Sequence record: SRR20825019_1297 | Reading direction: 5' to 3' (one strand) | Length of the DNA: 54,160 nucleotides | Part shown: piece after piece, positions 9,855-24,495 of the stretch | How the letters are laid out: the number at the start of each line of letters is the position of its first letter | Numbering within the stretch: position 1 is the first letter of the stretch | Program-made: the position numbers and the translations under genes | Notes under the pieces: model-generated | Database searches by the model: none | What the model was told of the DNA's origin: nothing | What the model saw: the letters and a program-made list of their open reading frames with translations, nothing else

Positions 9855-10706
9855 TTGGCTATGAGAAATTCTTTGAACAAAATAGTTGCCGAAATCCAGG
9901 AGCAGGAAAGGAAGTTGTCCGCAAATGCATCCAGTTTCATAGACGAGGCATTTAAAATGACGGTATTTCTCCAGGAGTTGTTATGCACACTGAAAGAGAA
10001 GGTGGCAAAAGAAGGGTTTTCCACTAAGGATGAAGAAATCCATTTTTTCAAACAGGTGAAGCCGAACATTCTCGGAAAACTTATTTACTACAATAAAGTA
10101 TATCGGATTGAAACGGCCTGTCCCGTGGATAATGGAAATTTGAACCAAAATTATTATGCTTTACAACTCCGGGGACTGACACAGGAATACAAGGAGCATG
10201 TTTGCAGTTCGGCTTTTTACAGGTACTACCGTTCCGGCAGAACCGACCGGGACGAAAACTATTTTATGCGGGGAAACATAAATTACCATGATGGGCTGAA
10301 CAGTTATGTATTTGAAATAGACCCCAAGTTTTCTACATACTTCGATTACAAGGTGGCCAAAATTGTAGCCAACGAACTCATCTATAATTATCTGACAACC
10401 AAATTAAGCCCCGAACAGAATCCTGACATCCTGTTGCAGAATGCCGAAACAAAAGATATTTTCTGGACACAGACAAAAAATGCCCTTATTGAATTGATTT
10501 ATGCCCTCCATGCTTCCGATGCCATTTCGCATGGAAAGATAGGCATCCGAAAAATCAGCCTGGTATTCCAAATCCTGTTCCGTGTTTCGCTCAATGACAT
10601 TCATAACAGCTTTCACCGCATGAAGACCCGGGCCGGATCACGTACCTTGTTTTTGGACCAACTGAAATACAGTTTGGAGGAATACATGGACAAGGAAGAC
10701 CATTAA
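9855..10706 (+). CDS. rteC: RteC family regulator (copy 1)
   Basis: EEIHFFKQVKP, FSTYFDYKVAKIVAN, W..TKNALIELIYALH, R..FLD.L motifs. Confidence 0.9.
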   Translation: MAMRNSLNKIVAEIQEQERKLSANASSFIDEAFKMTVFLQELLCTLKEKVAKEGFSTKDEEIHFFKQVKPNILGKLIYYNKVYRIETACPVDNGNLNQNYYALQLRGLTQEYKEHVCSSAFYRYYRSGRTDRDENYFMRGNINYHDGLNSYVFEIDPKFSTYFDYKVAKIVANELIYNYLTTKLSPEQNPDILLQNAETKDIFWTQTKNALIELIYALHASDAISHGKIGIRKISLVFQILFRVSLNDIHNSFHRMKTRAGSRTLFLDQLKYSLEEYMDKEDH

Positions 10707-13187: not shown

Positions 13188-15272
13188 ATGAAAGCGATCA
13201 TTGCAGAAAAACCAAGCGTGGCAAGGGAAATAGCCAGTCTGTTGGGGGCTACCGAAAAACGGGATGGTTACCTGACAGGGAACGGTTATCAGGTTACGTG
13301 GGCATTGGGCCATTTGGTGGGATTGGCAATGCCGGAGGACTATGGATTGACAGGTTTCCAAAAGGAAGCCCTGCCCATCTTGCCGGATCCTTTTTTGCTC
13401 ACGGTACGAAAGGTAAAAAAGGAGAAAAGTTATATTCCCGATAGCAGGGCGGTAAAACAGTTGAAGATCATTGAGCAGGTCATCACCCGCTCGGATAGCA
13501 TTATCGTGGCCACCGATGCAGGACGCGAGGGCGAACTTATCTTCAGGTATATTTATGAGTACCTAAAGTGCCGGAAGCCCTTTCAGCGTTTATGGATAAG
13601 TTCATTGACCGAAAAAGCGATCAAGCAGGGATTTGACAACCTGAAACCCGGAAGCGATTTTGACGGATTGTACCGTTCCGGACAAGGACGGAGCCAGGCT
13701 GACTGGCTGGTGGGCATCAATGCTTCGCAGGCATTGAGTATTGCCGCAGGGCGTGGGGTGTATTCGCTCGGGCGTGTACAAACGCCGACGCTTGCCCTTA
13801 TCTGTAAGCGGTATTTGGAAAACAAAGACTTTACCAGTAAAAAATACTTCCAGATCCAATTGGGGCATCGTAAGGAATTTGTGGGCTTCAAGAGCCTTTC
13901 CAAAACCAAATGGGACGACCATAAACCCGCAGTCGATACTCTAAAATCCATCCAACGTACCGGGACTGCTACTGTGACGGCTGTGGAAAATAAAACGGTT
14001 TCGGAACAACCGCCCTTGCTGTTCGACCTGACGGGCTTACAAAAAGAAGCCAACAAAAAACTGGGGCTTTCCGCAGAAGAAACATTGGGCGTTGCACAAA
14101 GCCTGTACGAAAAGAAATTCATTACCTATCCCCGCACCGGGAGCAAATATATACCTGAAGATTTATGGCCTGAAATCCCTGTACTGGTAAGAACACTGGA
14201 AGTAAGGGCATCCTGCATAGAAGCGGTCGGGAAAGTAAAATGGGGACGTTTCAACAAGCGTATTGTGAACGATGTAAAGGTAACGGACCATCACGGTCTG
14301 CTCATTACCGAAAAAAGCCCTTCCGCATTGTCTGCAAAGGAGGATGCGGTTTACGACATGATAGCCCTGCGGTTATTGGAAGCCTTATCGCATGCCTGTT
14401 CCAAAGAAATAACCGACATCGCATTACAGGTCCTTCACTACGATTTTGCATTGAAAGGATGTAAGATATCGAAACCGGGCTGGCGTGCCATCAGGGGCAA
14501 TTTTACCGGGGAAGACAATGAACCGGTACAGGAACTGCCCGAATTACAGGTAGGTGATAAACTCAAAATAAAAGAGGCCGCCATTTTGGAAAAGAAAACC
14601 AAACCGCCCGTGCTTTATACCGAGGCCGGCCTATTATCCGCTATGGAGAAAGCCGGAAGGGAAATAGCGGACAAAGACGAACGGAAAGCCCTGCAAGGCA
14701 TCGGTATTGGTACACCGGCTACCAGGGCGGCCATCATAGAAACGCTTTTTAAAAGGGATTATATCAAACGGGAAAGAAAATCCCTTATTCCCACCGATAA
14801 GGGACTGCGGGTATATGGGGTTATAAAGGACAAAAAGATTGCCGATGTATCCATGACCGCCGAATGGGAAATGGCATTGCAGAAAATAGAGAACAACGAA
14901 ATGGATGCAACAGCTTTCCATAAGGAGATGGAAGCCTATAGCACCTTTATAACACAGGAACTTTTAAGCATGACCATTGCAAAGGAAAAGCGTCCCGAAC
15001 TGACCTGCCCCAAATGCAGGAACCGTCAACTTTTAATTTGGGACAAGGTAGTCAAATGCCCCGATGATGCCTGCAACTGGCTACAATTTCGCAATGTCTG
15101 CGGGGTGCAGTTAAGCCTTTCCGAAATAGAAAATCTTGTGAGCAAAGGGAGAACCAACCTTATCAAGGGCATGAAAAGCAAATCGGGCAAAAAGTTCGAA
15201 GCCTACATCTCAATGAAAGATAATGGCGAAACCGCCTTTGAATTCGGGAAACATAAAAATCATAGAAAGTAA
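13188..15272 (+). CDS. topB: Type IA DNA topoisomerase (Topo III / Exc-like)
   Basis: IAEKPSVA, ATDAGREGE, SLGRVQTPTL, ITYPRT (catalytic Tyr), GIGTPATRA; C-terminal Cys ribbon. Confidence 0.93.
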   Translation: MKAIIAEKPSVAREIASLLGATEKRDGYLTGNGYQVTWALGHLVGLAMPEDYGLTGFQKEALPILPDPFLLTVRKVKKEKSYIPDSRAVKQLKIIEQVITRSDSIIVATDAGREGELIFRYIYEYLKCRKPFQRLWISSLTEKAIKQGFDNLKPGSDFDGLYRSGQGRSQADWLVGINASQALSIAAGRGVYSLGRVQTPTLALICKRYLENKDFTSKKYFQIQLGHRKEFVGFKSLSKTKWDDHKPAVDTLKSIQRTGTATVTAVENKTVSEQPPLLFDLTGLQKEANKKLGLSAEETLGVAQSLYEKKFITYPRTGSKYIPEDLWPEIPVLVRTLEVRASCIEAVGKVKWGRFNKRIVNDVKVTDHHGLLITEKSPSALSAKEDAVYDMIALRLLEALSHACSKEITDIALQVLHYDFALKGCKISKPGWRAIRGNFTGEDNEPVQELPELQVGDKLKIKEAAILEKKTKPPVLYTEAGLLSAMEKAGREIADKDERKALQGIGIGTPATRAAIIETLFKRDYIKRERKSLIPTDKGLRVYGVIKDKKIADVSMTAEWEMALQKIENNEMDATAFHKEMEAYSTFITQELLSMTIAKEKRPELTCPKCRNRQLLIWDKVVKCPDDACNWLQFRNVCGVQLSLSEIENLVSKGRTNLIKGMKSKSGKKFEAYISMKDNGETAFEFGKHKNHRK

Positions 15273-16153
15273 TGGAAAATAAGCCCATCGTAAGCCCAAC
15301 GGAAATAAAGAACCTGATTTATACCATACGTGGCAAACAAGTGATGCTGGACAGCGACCTGGCTTCCCTATACCAAGTGGAAACGAAAAACCTCAACCGG
15401 GCAGTAAAAAGGAACATGGAAAGGTTTCCGGAGTCATTCTGCTTTCAACTGACCGATGAGGAAACCGAATTTTTGAGGTTCCAATTTGGCACCTCAAATG
15501 TAGGGCGAGGCGGAAGACGTTATCTGCCCTACGTTTTCGGCGAACCAGGAATAGCGATGTTGTCCGCAGTACTTCGTTCCGATATTGCCATAAAAATCAG
15601 CATTGAGATCATGGATGCCTTTGTGGAAATGCGCAGGATGCTGATGAGCAATGCTTCCCTTTTTCACCGTTTGGATAAAATCGAACTCAAACAGATAGAG
15701 GCAGATGGCAAGTTTGAAGAAATCTTTAAGGTACTGGATAGTGGCAAACTCCACAGTGATAAGGGTATTTTCTATGATGGGCAGGTTTTCGATGCCTATA
15801 CCTTTGTTTCCGATATTGTCCGAGGTGCACAGAGGTCAATTATCCTCATTGACAATTATGTGGACGATACGGTACTCACTTTATTAGGAAAAAGGAAAGA
15901 TAGTGTAGCAGCGACTATCTATACCAGGAATATCAGCAATCAGCTACGGCTGGACTTGCAACGCTACAACAGCCAATATCCATCGATTGACATTCACGTT
16001 TTCAAGAATGCCCATGACCGTTTCCTCATTGTTGATGACACGCAATTATACCATATTGGGGCATCGCTCAAAGACCTGGGCAAAAAGTGGTTTGCCTTTT
16101 CAAAAATGGATATTGAAGTCAATAAGATGTTGCAATTTTTAAACGATTTGTGA
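15272..16153 (+). CDS. ORF6N domain protein with PLD-like C-terminal domain
   Basis: IRGKQVMLDSDLA.LY.V....LN.AVKRN.ERFP..F.FQLT; C-terminal IILIDNY...HDRFLIVD...YHIGASLKDLG; start overlaps the topB stop. Confidence 0.85.
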   Translation: MENKPIVSPTEIKNLIYTIRGKQVMLDSDLASLYQVETKNLNRAVKRNMERFPESFCFQLTDEETEFLRFQFGTSNVGRGGRRYLPYVFGEPGIAMLSAVLRSDIAIKISIEIMDAFVEMRRMLMSNASLFHRLDKIELKQIEADGKFEEIFKVLDSGKLHSDKGIFYDGQVFDAYTFVSDIVRGAQRSIILIDNYVDDTVLTLLGKRKDSVAATIYTRNISNQLRLDLQRYNSQYPSIDIHVFKNAHDRFLIVDDTQLYHIGASLKDLGKKWFAFSKMDIEVNKMLQFLNDL

Positions 16154-16159
16154 ATTGGT

Positions 16160-17497
16160 TTACTCATCAATCTCTTGAGGATTCTCTAATGGATGGAAGG
16201 CTGCAACTCTACCGTTTTCTAAAACATGTAGGGAATAATGATTGCCATTAAAATACAGTGATTTATCTCCATAAATTCTGAATTCCTTCCCCTGCGACAG
16301 TCTATCATTAATTTGTGGCAATAGATTCTCGATTGCGATTTTCAGAATACGCCTTATATCTCTATAAGAATACTGAAACTTGGTTTTATTTTCAAAATGG
16401 CCTTCTATGGACAGTTCATCGCAATGGCGTAAATAAATATGAAGAAAACTTTCGTAATCCCAATAAATCGGTTTTACAACATTGTGATAGGCCAAAGTTT
16501 CATTGTCAAACTCAATCCTGGAAACTTCAAGAGCCTTGTAAATTTCCGGGTATTCTTCTTTGAATTTTTCTAAAGTTTTATTGGTTGAACGTTTAATTTC
16601 TTTCACAACTGCCTCGATCCGAACAGTTTTACGTTCCTTTAAAAACTCATTGAATTCCAGTATTTCTTCAGCAGAAATATCTTTAGCATATAATTTGGCT
16701 TCTAATTCAAAAAAACGTGATAAATAGGTTTTTTTTCCGTCTTGCGAAAATCCCTTGGTTTTTATAATATCAAAATTTACTGATTCGGGTTCTAAGTAAA
16801 ATGATAATCCACAGAACTTAGCCCACTCATCATCAGTTAGTAGGTAACCACTTTTAATCTTTTGTCCCAGCAACCAGTGATTTGATCGGTTAACGTCAAA
16901 TCCGGTCGGATCCATCTTTATTTCAATTGTATTTGGTATTACTTTCTTTCCGACTTGGCCAAAGGCTTTTTGAGCAGGGAAATTAGTCGCCAAAACCTCA
17001 TAAATATCGCCACTAATAAACCCTTCGTTTTTGAGTAGATCTTGTTGTTCCTTTGATAAGTTGCCGTCTGTAGATTCAAATTTTACAAGGCCATTTGTTC
17101 TGGGTACATTTTTGGATTTAATAATTTGTTCCAAAGATTCACGTTCTGCTTTTCCATACAGGATGACACCAGAAATATTGCGACCATATTTCTGTGCTGA
17201 TTCACTGAATTTATGAAATTCTATACTAATGAATTTTCGTTCGTATTGGCCATACATCGCATAGATTTCCTCAACGGAAAACTGAAAGCGTTCCTTTTTC
17301 TGATTATCAATTTCCTGTTTGAATTTCTCCAGTTCTCCACGATATATTGATATGGCATATTTCAATCGGGCTATTTTTTCCTTTTCTTCTGGCAGCGTAT
17401 TAGCCAAAGTTTTTTCACATGCAATCAACTGTTCCTCGACTATATCACTAAGTAGATATAAGCCTGGATCATTTATCTTATGGTTTATTCCGTACAT
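16160..17497 (-). CDS. Hypothetical 445-aa protein; C-terminus resembles toxin RNase domains
   Basis: Long ORF in visibly AT-rich DNA, opposite to its neighbours, with its own TATTTTTG box (17556-17549); HIYLRH...KTKF...GRVAAFHP at the C-terminus. Confidence 0.7.
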   Translation of the reverse strand: MYGINHKINDPGLYLLSDIVEEQLIACEKTLANTLPEEKEKIARLKYAISIYRGELEKFKQEIDNQKKERFQFSVEEIYAMYGQYERKFISIEFHKFSESAQKYGRNISGVILYGKAERESLEQIIKSKNVPRTNGLVKFESTDGNLSKEQQDLLKNEGFISGDIYEVLATNFPAQKAFGQVGKKVIPNTIEIKMDPTGFDVNRSNHWLLGQKIKSGYLLTDDEWAKFCGLSFYLEPESVNFDIIKTKGFSQDGKKTYLSRFFELEAKLYAKDISAEEILEFNEFLKERKTVRIEAVVKEIKRSTNKTLEKFKEEYPEIYKALEVSRIEFDNETLAYHNVVKPIYWDYESFLHIYLRHCDELSIEGHFENKTKFQYSYRDIRRILKIAIENLLPQINDRLSQGKEFRIYGDKSLYFNGNHYSLHVLENGRVAAFHPLENPQEIDE

Positions 17498-17587
17498 AAT
17501 TCTGTCATTTATTTAGTTGAGGCCAAATCCCTTTTTATCAGCGTTATACAAAAATAGAATTTAATTGTACTTAGTAGGTATGCAATT

Positions 17588-17657
17588 GCCAAATCCTACC
17601 TCTCAAAGCCAAGCCCTACTACTTCTTTAAAGACACTTATATCCCACTATAATTTTG
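17588..17657 (+). promoter_or_regulatory. Phased array plus -7 box upstream of DUF1896
   Basis: GCCA 17588, ACCT 17598, GCCA 17608, ACTA 17618; TAATTTTG at 17650. Confidence 0.5.
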
Positions 17658-17677
17658 ACTTCAAACAAAATTATAGT

Positions 17678-18115
17678 ATGGAAACACGACAAAAAGACCT
17701 TTCCTATTTTACATTAAGGTTACAGGAATTACTCAGCACCAGCTTTCCCGAAAAAGCATACGACCAACAATTTATCGAACAGCGTTCCCGGTGGGCCGCC
17801 AATGCTTACGAAGGGGCATTTCTATCGGGAAACCCAATTGACCAATGCGATGAAATAGCCAGTTATATCCTCTTTGAGGGGCTGCACTTCTCCAAATTCG
17901 ACACGGTATTCCAAGTAGTCTGCAATGAGTTCGACACGATTATGGCAGACGAGGAACTGCGACCGTTTGCCCTGAAAATGCTCCCTGTCTGTGAGCCCGT
18001 TTTCTCCAACTATGAACTGACCGATGATTTTGCGTACGATAATGAGTTTGATGTCCTCTATACCGAAATAACGGGAACCATCGCCATTTGGATAGCCGAA
18101 AATGGGCTTCAGTAA
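17678..18115 (+). CDS. DUF1896 family protein
   Basis: LSYF.LRL..LL..SFPE and [11 protein letters not shown] motifs; usual position before the methylase-helicase. Confidence 0.82.
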
Positions 18116-23670: not shown

Positions 23671-24495
23671 CTATTTTTCATCTTGCTCATCCATTTTTTT
23701 GATGAGGCCATCCCGGAGCGCATCAAGGAATTTGATCCGGTTCATTTTCCGGGTTCTGAGTTCCAAATACGTTTGATAGAAATTCCCCAGATCAATATTA
23801 AAGATGCTTTCAAAATACTTGGCTATTAACCTTATATCGCTGTTGCCGAAAACACCCTGATAATGCAGTGCATAAATAAGTTCTATCATAGCGGCTTTGC
23901 TTCCCAGCCAATTCAATTTTGGTAGGTCTATAGATTTGTCTCCCTGTGCCGTGCTGGAGAGCTGATCTTCGAGATATACCTGTATCAAATCATTGGCTAT
24001 TATCTTGGCCACTTTATAATCGTGGGAAGTGGAAAACCTATGGTCGGTTTCAAAATAATAAGTATCTAAGCTCAACTTTATATCATACTTGCCTCTGACA
24101 AAATATTTCTCATCGAGGTAGGTGCTATTAGTTCTGTAATATTTATAAAATTCGAGGTTATTATCAAAATATCTTTTCAGTTTTGTCAATTCATTGTCGA
24201 TATACTTCTTTATTGCTTTCCCGTTGCCATAAGGCTTTTTGGCTTCTATCTTGTATATCGCATTGTAGTAAATCAGCTTTGCGAGGATAACAGGCTTTAA
24301 TCTTTTGAAGAAATCTATTTCTTCTTCGACACTCTTGAAGCCTCGTTCTAACACAAATTTCTTTAACTTAGACAGGCATTCTATGAGAAGTTCAACAATC
24401 TCTTGTGGTAATAGAATGGGGTTATCAAATTCTATTGTCAATTCTTGGATTTTTCCTTCCAATTTTTCTACGCATTCGTTGTAATATTTTTTCAT
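23671..24495 (-). CDS. rteC: RteC family regulator (copy 2)
   Basis: EEIDFFKRLKP, FSTSHDYKVAKIIAND, W.GSKAAMIELIYALH; clearly diverged from copy 1. Confidence 0.9.
   Translation of the reverse strand: MKKYYNECVEKLEGKIQELTIEFDNPILLPQEIVELLIECLSKLKKFVLERGFKSVEEEIDFFKRLKPVILAKLIYYNAIYKIEAKKPYGNGKAIKKYIDNELTKLKRYFDNNLEFYKYYRTNSTYLDEKYFVRGKYDIKLSLDTYYFETDHRFSTSHDYKVAKIIANDLIQVYLEDQLSSTAQGDKSIDLPKLNWLGSKAAMIELIYALHYQGVFGNSDIRLIAKYFESIFNIDLGNFYQTYLELRTRKMNRIKFLDALRDGLIKKMDEQDEK

Follow-up and report, generated by a model that had tools for sequence, protein, structure and literature searches.

The stretch of DNA analysed here, 54,160 nt from sequence record SRR20825019_1297 (the window, to which all window coordinates refer), harbours on its minus strand, within an integrative and conjugative element (ICE) of the CTnDOT type, a gene for a 445-aa protein whose C-terminal domain probably has the BECR fold, as judged from predicted models. 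From this predicted fold and from an invariant pair of histidines we infer a His-dependent RNase, a conclusion that we consider likely, with somewhat less assurance than the fold itself. The reading favoured here, in which the protein is a cytoplasmic, self-restrained BECR endoribonuclease operating as a conflict effector, most likely through abortive infection, has in our judgement an even chance of being right, and its defence role taken separately slightly less than that. BECR-fold RNases constitute a major class of bacterial conflict effectors, and most of their divergent families are missed by sequence annotation. The effector class itself is known, and the family would contribute a Bacteroidota-specific branch to it; what is new is an undescribed Bacteroidota family and an N-terminal architecture that comes without an immunity partner.

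A C-terminal domain with a predicted BECR fold

The gene had been described as an AT-rich open reading frame (ORF) opposing the backbone direction between ORF6N and DUF1896 genes, and its coordinates, strand and composition agree with that description. Its 3' end faces that of the ORF6N gene (15272-16153) across a gap of 6 nt, and it is divergently oriented with respect to the DUF1896 gene (17678-18115), both neighbours being identified by Pfam. Its composition (GC 34.8%; GC at third codon positions, GC3, 30.3%) is foreign to the ICE backbone, where four genes (topoisomerase III, ORF6N, DUF1896 and methylase-SNF2) present GC values of 43.0-47.3% and GC3 values of 50-53%, and the DUF4099 gene a GC of 45.4%. 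Hydropathy analysis revealed no transmembrane (TM) segment or signal peptide, as had been read from the sequence, with a maximum Kyte-Doolittle value of 0.65 over a 19-aa window, and the protein is cytoplasmic. The features of the gene, as delimited on the full-length model and the alignments, are the following:

16160..17497, minus strand: whole ORF, ATG start, 445 aa plus stop; unannotated Bacteroidota protein family
16163..16510, minus strand: predicted BECR-fold RNase domain, residues 330-445
16424..16441, minus strand: codons of H353-I-Y-L-R357-H358; H-x3-R-H motif, candidate catalytic centre
16382..16387, minus strand: codons of K371-T372; flexible loop after the His helix, candidate transition-state/substrate-binding residues
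16511..16912, minus strand: all-helical middle domain, residues 196-329; helices 202-329, pLDDT (the predicted local distance difference test) about 86-92
16913..16987, minus strand: linker, residues 171-195; low confidence, K-x-I-P-N-T-I motif
16988..17284, minus strand: alpha/beta domain, residues 72-170; alternating helices and four strands, start of the family core
17285..17497, minus strand: N-terminal helical hairpin, residues 1-71; helices 15-33 and 39-69, accessory of the long (~440-450 aa) subfamily

Residues 330-445 were modelled alone with AlphaFold2 from an alignment of 133 rows (pLDDT 80.2, predicted TM-score 0.75), yielding, in domain numbering, a hairpin, a helix at 19-29, helices at 49-62 and 64-72, and strands at 77-79, 85-87, 90-96 and 101-108. 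The same elements appear in the full-length model, built with 37 homologues (mean pLDDT 81.6), and the fold matches of the two models agree. In the predicted domain a beta-hairpin is followed by a helix carrying H353, R357 and H358, a flexible loop with K371 and T372, two helices and a four-stranded antiparallel sheet, so that the model shows the compact alpha+beta core of the BECR superfamily, in which a helix packs against an antiparallel sheet of four strands.

Structural comparison points in the same direction. The fold-match table is headed, with its values given in order, by 7m5f_C (6.6, 3.1, 82), 5e3e_B (6.4, 3.0, 85), 6vek_A (5.3, 3.5, 92) and 7vmc_B (5.1, 4.4, 83), the fifth match being a PAS domain. 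Classified by entry title rather than by matched chain, 24 of the 26 top rows are contact-dependent growth inhibition (CDI) or polymorphic toxins, colicin D, toxin-antitoxin entries (RelE, YoeB, ParE, BrnT) or endoribonucleases of the EndoU, Nsp15, XendoU and RegB kinds. Chain C of 7m5f comprises 119 residues and hence fits the 127-residue toxin of that entry, not its 98-residue immunity protein. A search of the ESM Atlas with residues 330-445 returned EndoU_bacteria clusters at 0.90, 0.89 and 0.89, with all ten of the ten best matches falling in one family or clan. The proposal that the C-terminal ~115 residues are BECR/EndoU-like is supported by the fold matches to CDI RNase toxins, colicin D, EndoU/Nsp15 and RelE/ParE and by the EndoU clusters of the ESM search. 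On these models, the domain probably belongs to the canonical BECR superfamily, without assignment to a sub-branch.

Other roles for a domain of this shape have to be considered. It could be a different two-His enzyme or a binding module, such as a cyclic-nucleotide phosphodiesterase or a ParE-like inhibitor, and the protein even an anti-defence or establishment factor of the mobile element. We regard this as unlikely, given the predominance of RNase toxins among the top fold rows, the agreement of two models with the ESM search, and an invariant His pair accompanied by conserved Arg/Lys and Thr/Ser, which is the usual make-up of metal-independent RNases. Searches of 50,697 phage records, of 72,556 plasmid records and of IMG/VR turned up no relative of the family, which does not favour phage counter-defence in particular. 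Foldseek searches against the viral structures of BFVD likewise returned nothing at E ≤ 1e-3; phage 'polyvalent protein' entries head their weak rows and can be taken as no more than a lead.

Conserved residues and domain architecture

The original prediction had listed a lack of conservation of the histidines among homologues with the grounds for abandoning it. In an alignment of 124 sequences, with identities down to 21% and a mean column identity of 24%, both H353 and H358 are invariant (124/124), and G429 is the only other invariant column. Conservation is also pronounced at R357 (R in 109 of the 124 sequences, G in 12), at position 371 (K in 90, R in 15), at position 372 (T in 81, S in 23), at F374 (106), Y376 (105) and Y421 (116), and at position 430 (R in 88, K in 15). 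The motif reported for residues 353-436, HIYLRH...KTKF...GRVAAFHP, is read directly from the translation; its last histidine, that of FHP, did not hold up as a conserved residue, with H435 present in 66 sequences and replaced by Y in 39 and F in 11.

Mean column information is highest in the RNase-like domain (2.04 bits), intermediate in the alpha/beta domain (1.73) and lowest in the helical domain (1.26), where remote homologues show a median identity of 19% to the query. The alpha/beta domain presents the motif FQFSxEE(I/L)YxMYGQY and a series of conserved positions (G83 in 122 of the 124 sequences, G105 in 114, G110 in 112, R119 in 109, G159 in 122 and D164 in 101). In the linker, pLDDT stays below 50 across residues 172-195; K185 and P188 are nonetheless invariant in the 37 close homologues, and P188 is found in 94 of the 124 sequences of the deep alignment.

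Members of the family differ mostly at the N-terminus. Among the 124 aligned sequences, 91 are shorter than 425 aa and 28 have at least 425 aa, while five open with an MGKGD(R/K)K peptide, and remote homologues mostly begin near query residue 72. These lengths and starting points indicate that the hairpin of residues 1-71 is an accessory of one subfamily. The coiled coil that had been placed at the start of the protein hence survives as a helical hairpin in the model, as a trait of that subfamily and not of the family at large.

A side branch (L026:5875-7290, P0137, P0160, P0219 and P0253) bears a basic N-terminus resembling ribosomal protein THX, with the pattern MGKGD(R/K)K...KGK. All four of the N-termini scanned matched PF17070 with E-values from 3.6e-5 to 0.08, in every case below the gathering score, and the member at L026 is a single continuous ORF of 471 aa. 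A possible role of this peptide is to anchor the RNase on the 30S subunit or on RNA. A further variant, the 572-aa protein P0177, retains the N-terminal and helical stretches of the family as far as the His motif, over query residues 72-376, and then continues with ~270 unrelated residues without a Pfam match, which may reflect a domain swap or a chimeric gene call.

Comparison with known BECR proteins

The top-ranking structure, 7M5F, is the CdiA-CT toxin domain of Serratia marcescens BWH57, CASP14 target T1065s1. As described by its depositors, it has a BECR fold in which a beta-hairpin is combined with three helices, a 3-10 helix and a four-stranded antiparallel sheet, with H47, E51, H52 and R89 as likely active-site residues, and it represents a family of >900 homologues (PMC8616854). 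On that description, the inventory of elements equals the one predicted here, and so does the spacing of the histidines (H47-x3-E51-H52 versus H353-x3-R357-H358); H353 and H358 may be the equivalents of H47 and H52. As far as the depositors' account goes, this H-x3-(R/E)-H correspondence suggests a catalytic solution shared with the uncharacterised CdiA-CT BWH57 family. The two proteins nevertheless lack detectable sequence similarity, with 14-17% identity in structural alignments. Moreover, the 7M5F toxin sits at the tip of a CdiA protein that is secreted, and a separate CdiI immunity protein neutralises it, whereas the 445-aa protein is cytoplasmic, has no immunity gene and carries an additional ~330 residues of unrelated N-terminal domains.

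That the best structural matches are CdiA-CT domains raises the prospect of an inter-bacterial polymorphic toxin delivered to competitors in CDI-like fashion, and ESM Atlas matches of residues 72-330 show a weak proximity to polymorphic-toxin clusters of the MafB, PT-TG and EndoU kinds (0.79-0.84). These scores do not exceed 0.84, are below the lead threshold and are inconsistent, with only four of ten matches sharing a family, and were discarded as evidence. In addition, the protein shows neither signal peptide nor TM segment, no trafficking or pre-toxin domain is found in it by Pfam, no immunity ORF lies beside its gene or is conserved across loci, and searches with the whole protein or with residues 330-445 found no longer fused forms, the last being weak evidence. 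Delivery to competitors is accordingly a highly improbable role for this protein.

A 2026 preprint classifying BECR proteins provides a wider frame. According to its main text, members of its 'Colicin-like' group have extra strands and a pre-alpha helix with a catalytic His, followed by an alpha helix and four strands, and the extra N-terminal strands occur in CDI and phage members; EndoU-like proteins use two His plus Ser/Thr. The text also sets apart a 'BECR-like' superfamily that does not recover canonical BECR structures in structure searches, which makes this superfamily a poorer fit for the C-terminal domain described here. As far as that text goes, the element order of the Colicin-like group (colicin D, PBECR, and CDI tRNases such as the CdiA-CT domains of K. 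pneumoniae 342 and E. coli 3006, NC101 and EC869) matches that of the model. In that group a second active-site residue sits on the terminal strand, where the present family has position 435 with its mixture of H, Y and F. The family further differs from colicin D and the CDI tRNases in having no Pfam or profile match, in carrying two invariant His on the pre-alpha-like helix 348-358, and in a context unlike that of a delivered toxin. Regarding EndoU, no hmmscan match to PF14436 (EndoU_bacteria) was obtained with the whole protein at E ≤ 1, the ESM Atlas neighbourhood being the only pointer to that family. The same preprint describes EndoU as a duplicated BECR module whose two His come from different modules, whereas the present family has just one module and carries both of its His on the same helix.

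Proteins of the RelE/ParE superfamily (RelE, YoeB, BrnT, ParE) share the fold class, but they are single-domain proteins of ~90 aa paired with antitoxins, and many toxins of this type are described in the preprint's main text as lacking a catalytic His. The 445-aa protein has no Pfam or NCBIfam match to RelE, ParE, YoeB, HigB or BrnT, no adjacent small gene and, across 53 loci, no conserved neighbour. Among known proteins, PtuZ of the ptuXYZ/Menshen operon comes nearest as a functional analogue. It is a protein of 272 aa in which a helical linker joins a PIN-like domain to a YoeB-type BECR domain (PF06769); it occurs in Flavobacterium among others and is linked to PtuA-like ATPases and DUF262/GmrSD-type genes (PMC11980606). 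The two share a plan in which an alpha/beta domain and a helical part precede a C-terminal BECR RNase, predicted in the present case, and two family members have reminiscent surroundings, one following a PtuA-like ATPase (L030) and another adjoining a GmrSD gene (L026). The differences are nonetheless substantial: 272 aa against 445 aa (with a 370-aa core), no match to PF06769, no PtuX or PtuY in the window, and, at L030, upstream genes for AbiEii, a GHKL-like protein and a PtuA-like ATPase instead of DUF262. Identity with the PtuZ/Menshen effector was rejected on length, Pfam assignment and operon content, in a comparison made by description and not by alignment.

Upstream region and proposed mechanism

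The region separating the gene from DUF1896 contains the following features:

17498..17677, no strand assigned: divergent intergenic region between the gene and DUF1896, 180 nt, GC 31.1%
17549..17556, minus strand: TATTTTTG box, putative -7 promoter element of the Bacteroidota type, 52 nt upstream of the ATG

The Bacteroides -7 promoter consensus is TAnnTTTG. The consensus promoter box reported at 17556-17549 is indeed located there; statistical support for it is wanting, since the TANNTTTG pattern has 39 occurrences in the window where shuffled sequences predict 59. Sigma-70-type sites are also at chance level (8 found versus 7.6 expected). Since TANNTTTG does not exceed chance, the TATTTTTG box alone is no evidence of a promoter; a promoter upstream of the 445-aa gene is plausible. 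The region was also inspected for a missing antitoxin. The longest ORF confined to the 180 nt encodes only 27 aa, no tandem repeats were detected in it, and no Rfam family rose above noise beside the gene, in line with the earlier statement that no small immunity gene is adjacent.

Under the reading that we favour, the C-terminal ~110 residues would constitute a canonical BECR metal-independent endoribonuclease, closest to toxins of the CDI/colicin-D or EndoU types, with H353 and H358 acting as general acid and base, and with R357, K/R371, T/S372, Y421 and R/K430 binding the substrate and the transition state. The alpha/beta domain (residues 72-170) and the helical domain (196-329) would hold this RNase silent in cis; from the absence of a partner gene and the conservation of these domains we infer such inhibition by residues 72-329. 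Release of the RNase would follow a presumed trigger, in all likelihood an infecting phage or some other invading element, and the RNase could then cleave tRNA, rRNA or mRNA, stopping translation and aborting the infection. The copy in the window would be cargo in a variable slot of the CTnDOT-type ICE, with the ICE spreading the gene among the Bacteroidota.

A bolder version of this proposal envisages a one-gene, immunity-free abortive-infection system of the Bacteroidota, in which a self-inhibited, phage-triggered BECR RNase is combined with modular front ends (the coiled-coil hairpin, the THX-like 30S-docking peptide, or partner ATPases and Argonautes) and is moved by ICEs between orders, with Elizabethkingia and Flavobacterium columnare among its destinations; we consider this extended form doubtful. 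If gating in cis is true, the protein would offer a compact model for the safe keeping of a toxic RNase inside a single polypeptide and a new single-gene defence candidate in a phylum whose phage defence is poorly charted.

Several results weigh against the favoured reading. Foldseek searches against the PDB gave no significant match, with best E-values of 0.86 for the full-length model and 0.24 for the domain model. The ESM Atlas score of 0.90 is borderline, being reached by 4-10% of shuffled proteins, and the shared features number 169, where 170 is typical for true family members. The loop with K371 and T372 has low pLDDT, and catalytic pairs do not usually consist of two His five residues apart on a single helix. 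Neither sequence nor profile searches linked the protein to a known RNase family or solved structure; searches of the PDB by sequence with the whole protein, the C-terminal domain alone or a profile of 124 sequences gave chance-level rows only. The protein is also unmatched at E ≤ 1 in PADLOC-DB v2, which holds 5,027 defence-protein models. Lastly, neither a fold nor a family emerged for residues 72-330, and nothing marks them as an inhibitor or as the gating sensor that the original prediction had proposed; VIA-align of the full-length model is dominated by generic hairpin matches to residues 3-71, leaving residues 72-329 effectively unsearched.

Family distribution and spread

The family had been declared unrecognised in the original prediction, and Pfam, NCBIfam, PADLOC and PHROGs indeed assign no family to the 445-aa protein at E ≤ 1. 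A word-indexed homologue search returned 163 matches, and an exhaustive HMMER search of 1.84 billion representatives identified 299 clusters (at 50% identity) with E ≤ 1e-3, 62 of them with E ≤ 1e-30. The named homologues all belong to the Bacteroidota (Flavobacterium, Chryseobacterium, Aequorivita, Cyclobacterium, Empedobacter and others), and the distribution of the family is patchy and restricted to this phylum. The names given by the sources of 120 listed homologues are 'hypothetical' or 'uncharacterized', bar one UniRef label, 'DUF4263', attached to P0094; this Shedu/DUF4263 label was rejected after a Pfam scan at E ≤ 1 showed no DUF4263. No description of the family was found in the literature. 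The main text of the BECR classification preprint contains no occurrence of 'Bacteroid' or 'conjugative', and its supplementary family tables might list it.

The cluster at an identity of at least 90% comprises 66 members, and the 40 examined include Flavobacterium columnare, several Sphingobacterium species, Elizabethkingia anophelis, E. meningoseptica and two records labelled 'MULTISPECIES [Bacteroidota]'. Such a multi-genus cluster fits recent ICE-borne spread. Segment 16100-17700 of the window was detected at full word share in public runs under four organism codes of one study, at a word share of 0.89 under a fifth organism code from another study, and at a word share of 1.00 in a marine-metagenome run that may be the source of this DNA. 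Together with the multi-genus cluster, the shares under several organism codes suggest that this ICE segment passed between genera very recently. Carriage by a CTnDOT-type ICE, with copies at least 90% identical in opportunistic and fish pathogens, may affect phage susceptibility and element stability.

Homologue neighbourhoods

Neighbourhoods were examined at 54 loci from reference genomes, in 53 of which the family ORF was called. Defence genes are frequent in them. PADLOC matches at E ≤ 1e-10 were obtained for 26 of 100 immediate neighbour proteins, in 23 of the 53 loci, and include PDC-S05, AbiGi, Old, type I restriction endonuclease, PDC-M19A, PDC-S39 with a methylase, GmrSD/Orf5, PtuA-like, AbiEi, PDC-S22, RmrA, PDC-S01, AbiLii (four times), prokaryotic Argonaute (pAgo), PDC-S57 and SoFic. 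Further neighbours identified by Pfam are Mrr, PIN_12, a resolvase, IS200 and DDE transposases and a relaxase. Regions rich in defence genes and mobile elements are thus the habitat of the family, but being adjacent to a defence gene says little: at these loci, ORFs located 4 kb or more from the family gene have PADLOC matches in 9 of 65 cases, and the local enrichment among adjacent genes is weak (odds ratio 2.2, p = 0.08, two-sided), which counts against the favoured reading. Several loci, moreover, have metabolic neighbours (GluRS, dihydroxy-acid dehydratase, ROK kinase and aldo-keto reductase), a second point on that side. For the defence or addiction role proposed in the original prediction, the evidence is circumstantial.

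Together with the subfamily bearing an N-terminus like that of ribosomal protein THX, these core-metabolism neighbours could be taken to indicate an ordinary RNA-processing or housekeeping enzyme without a conflict role. The patchy distribution, the foreign composition of the gene, its presence on an ICE and in defence-rich regions, and the high divergence of the family leave this explanation with a minimal probability.

No neighbour family recurs in more than four of the 53 loci, indicating that the family has no conserved immunity or partner gene, and the close relatives of the window gene (L003-L024) stand alone. A few loci present compact arrangements on one strand. At L030:591-7188, genes for AbiEi, for AbiEii, for a protein of 674 aa that weakly matches GHKL ATPases and for a PtuA-like ATPase of 510 aa are followed by that for a 396-aa family member, which overlaps the ATPase gene by 11 nt; from gene order, this set looks like a Septu- or Menshen-like operon with the family member in the effector position. 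At L043:4407-9045, a class I pAgo-like gene (PADLOC E-value 2e-135) overlaps by 44 nt the gene for a 392-aa family member, which is separated by 9 nt from the downstream gene for a 637-aa Mrr_cat protein; this may be an Argonaute system with the family RNase as an extra effector. KilA-N/PDC-S22 genes lie 1-4 nt 5' of the family gene at L035, L050 and L053. The remote short-form members at these loci look operon-coupled. Multidomain BECR effectors are documented in defence operons, PtuZ/Menshen being an example (PMC11980606).

Such sets, along with AbiL-like gene pairs at L041 and L045-L047 and the analogy with PtuZ, would be expected if the family were an effector module of multi-gene defence systems, with ATPases or Argonaute-type sensors as partners and with the ICE copy orphaned or acting in trans. 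We hold this to be very unlikely as a general account, however, since the partners vary by locus, the window copy lacks any such partner as do its solitary close relatives, and the long subfamily bears its own additional N-terminal hairpin instead.

The variable slot of the conjugative element

The ICE context assumed in the original prediction is confirmed, the gene content of the window being that of a CTnDOT-type conjugative element. Besides two RteC genes, topoisomerase III, DUF1896, a 1807-aa N6-methylase/SNF2 protein, a YWFCY/TraG coupling protein, a relaxase, ParA and DUF3408, it includes HTH_17, DUF4099/DUF3945 and redox, thiol and RND-efflux cargo. The ICE context is shared by only three of the 53 family loci (L001, L002 and L006, with 90-92% identical copies). 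Conversely, among 301 Bacteroidota genomes sampled, 8 carry DUF1896, at 10 loci altogether, and at none of these 10 is the family gene present. The position it occupies in the window is empty or filled otherwise at these loci:

L068, L069, L072 and L073: slot with little or nothing in it
L065: metabolic and regulatory genes; backbone near-identical to the window (DUF1896 100%, topoisomerase 97%)
L067: heavy-metal genes
L066:6118-6873: a single 252-aa HEPN_Swt1/PDC-M34B protein between ORF6N and DUF1896, oriented as the 445-aa gene
L070:670-4037: ABC-3C system with CTD9 effector domain, middle component MC5 and LmuB-like ABC ATPase
L071: mad2-like methyltransferase
L074: weak STAND-NTPase match

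Of the six occupied slots, two contain clear conflict genes, two weaker candidates and two metabolic or metal genes, and four further slots are empty. The earlier statement that variable slots of ICEs often hold anti-phage genes is upheld for this slot as to variability and has to be toned down as to content: the slot is a general cargo site that takes conflict genes at times, and its acceptance of plain metabolic and heavy-metal cargo is a further point against a defence role. The protein in the slot of L066 has a different RNase fold in the equivalent position.

A fused toxin-antitoxin or addiction module, with a protease-labile cis-antitoxin N-terminal part and an RNase toxin C-terminal part that stabilise the ICE or island, would account for an ICE-borne gene without a separate antitoxin and for the frequent mobile-element neighbours (resolvase, transposases, relaxase). 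It is quite unlikely even so. The gene lies outside the ICE backbone, as its absence from the other DUF1896 loci and the rarity of the ICE context among family loci attest; its N-terminal domains are large, with about 260 conserved residues and no antitoxin-family match; and the two halves of the protein would need to differ in stability.

The adjacent ORF6N gene (15272-16153, plus strand) is a full-length match to the PADLOC candidate single-gene system PDC-S05 (E-value 5.6e-133), and its C-terminal half gives a weak NCBIfam match to VPA1262_N (E-value 2.4e-4). As a dedicated partner of the 445-aa protein it was rejected, being present without the family gene in five of the 10 other DUF1896 loci (L065, L066, L069, L070 and L071). 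ORF6N is part of the ICE backbone beside topoisomerase III, and the status of PDC-S05 as a defence candidate may stem from hitch-hiking on the ICE.

Elsewhere in the window, the two RteC-family genes (9855-10706, plus strand, and 23671-24495, minus strand) flank the topoisomerase-to-methylase block in opposite orientations. Past the second of them lies a ~20-kb cargo region (DsbD, redoxins, rhodanese, DsrE, RND efflux and oxidoreductases), followed by the TraG coupling protein. In the Chryseobacterium and Empedobacter copies of the ICE (L002 and L006: 4665-5945 and 7348-8300), an extra 427-aa gene, with no Pfam family and only weak zinc-ribbon-like matches, is located between DUF1896 and the family gene, and ORF6N appears split into ORFs of 198 and 108 aa.

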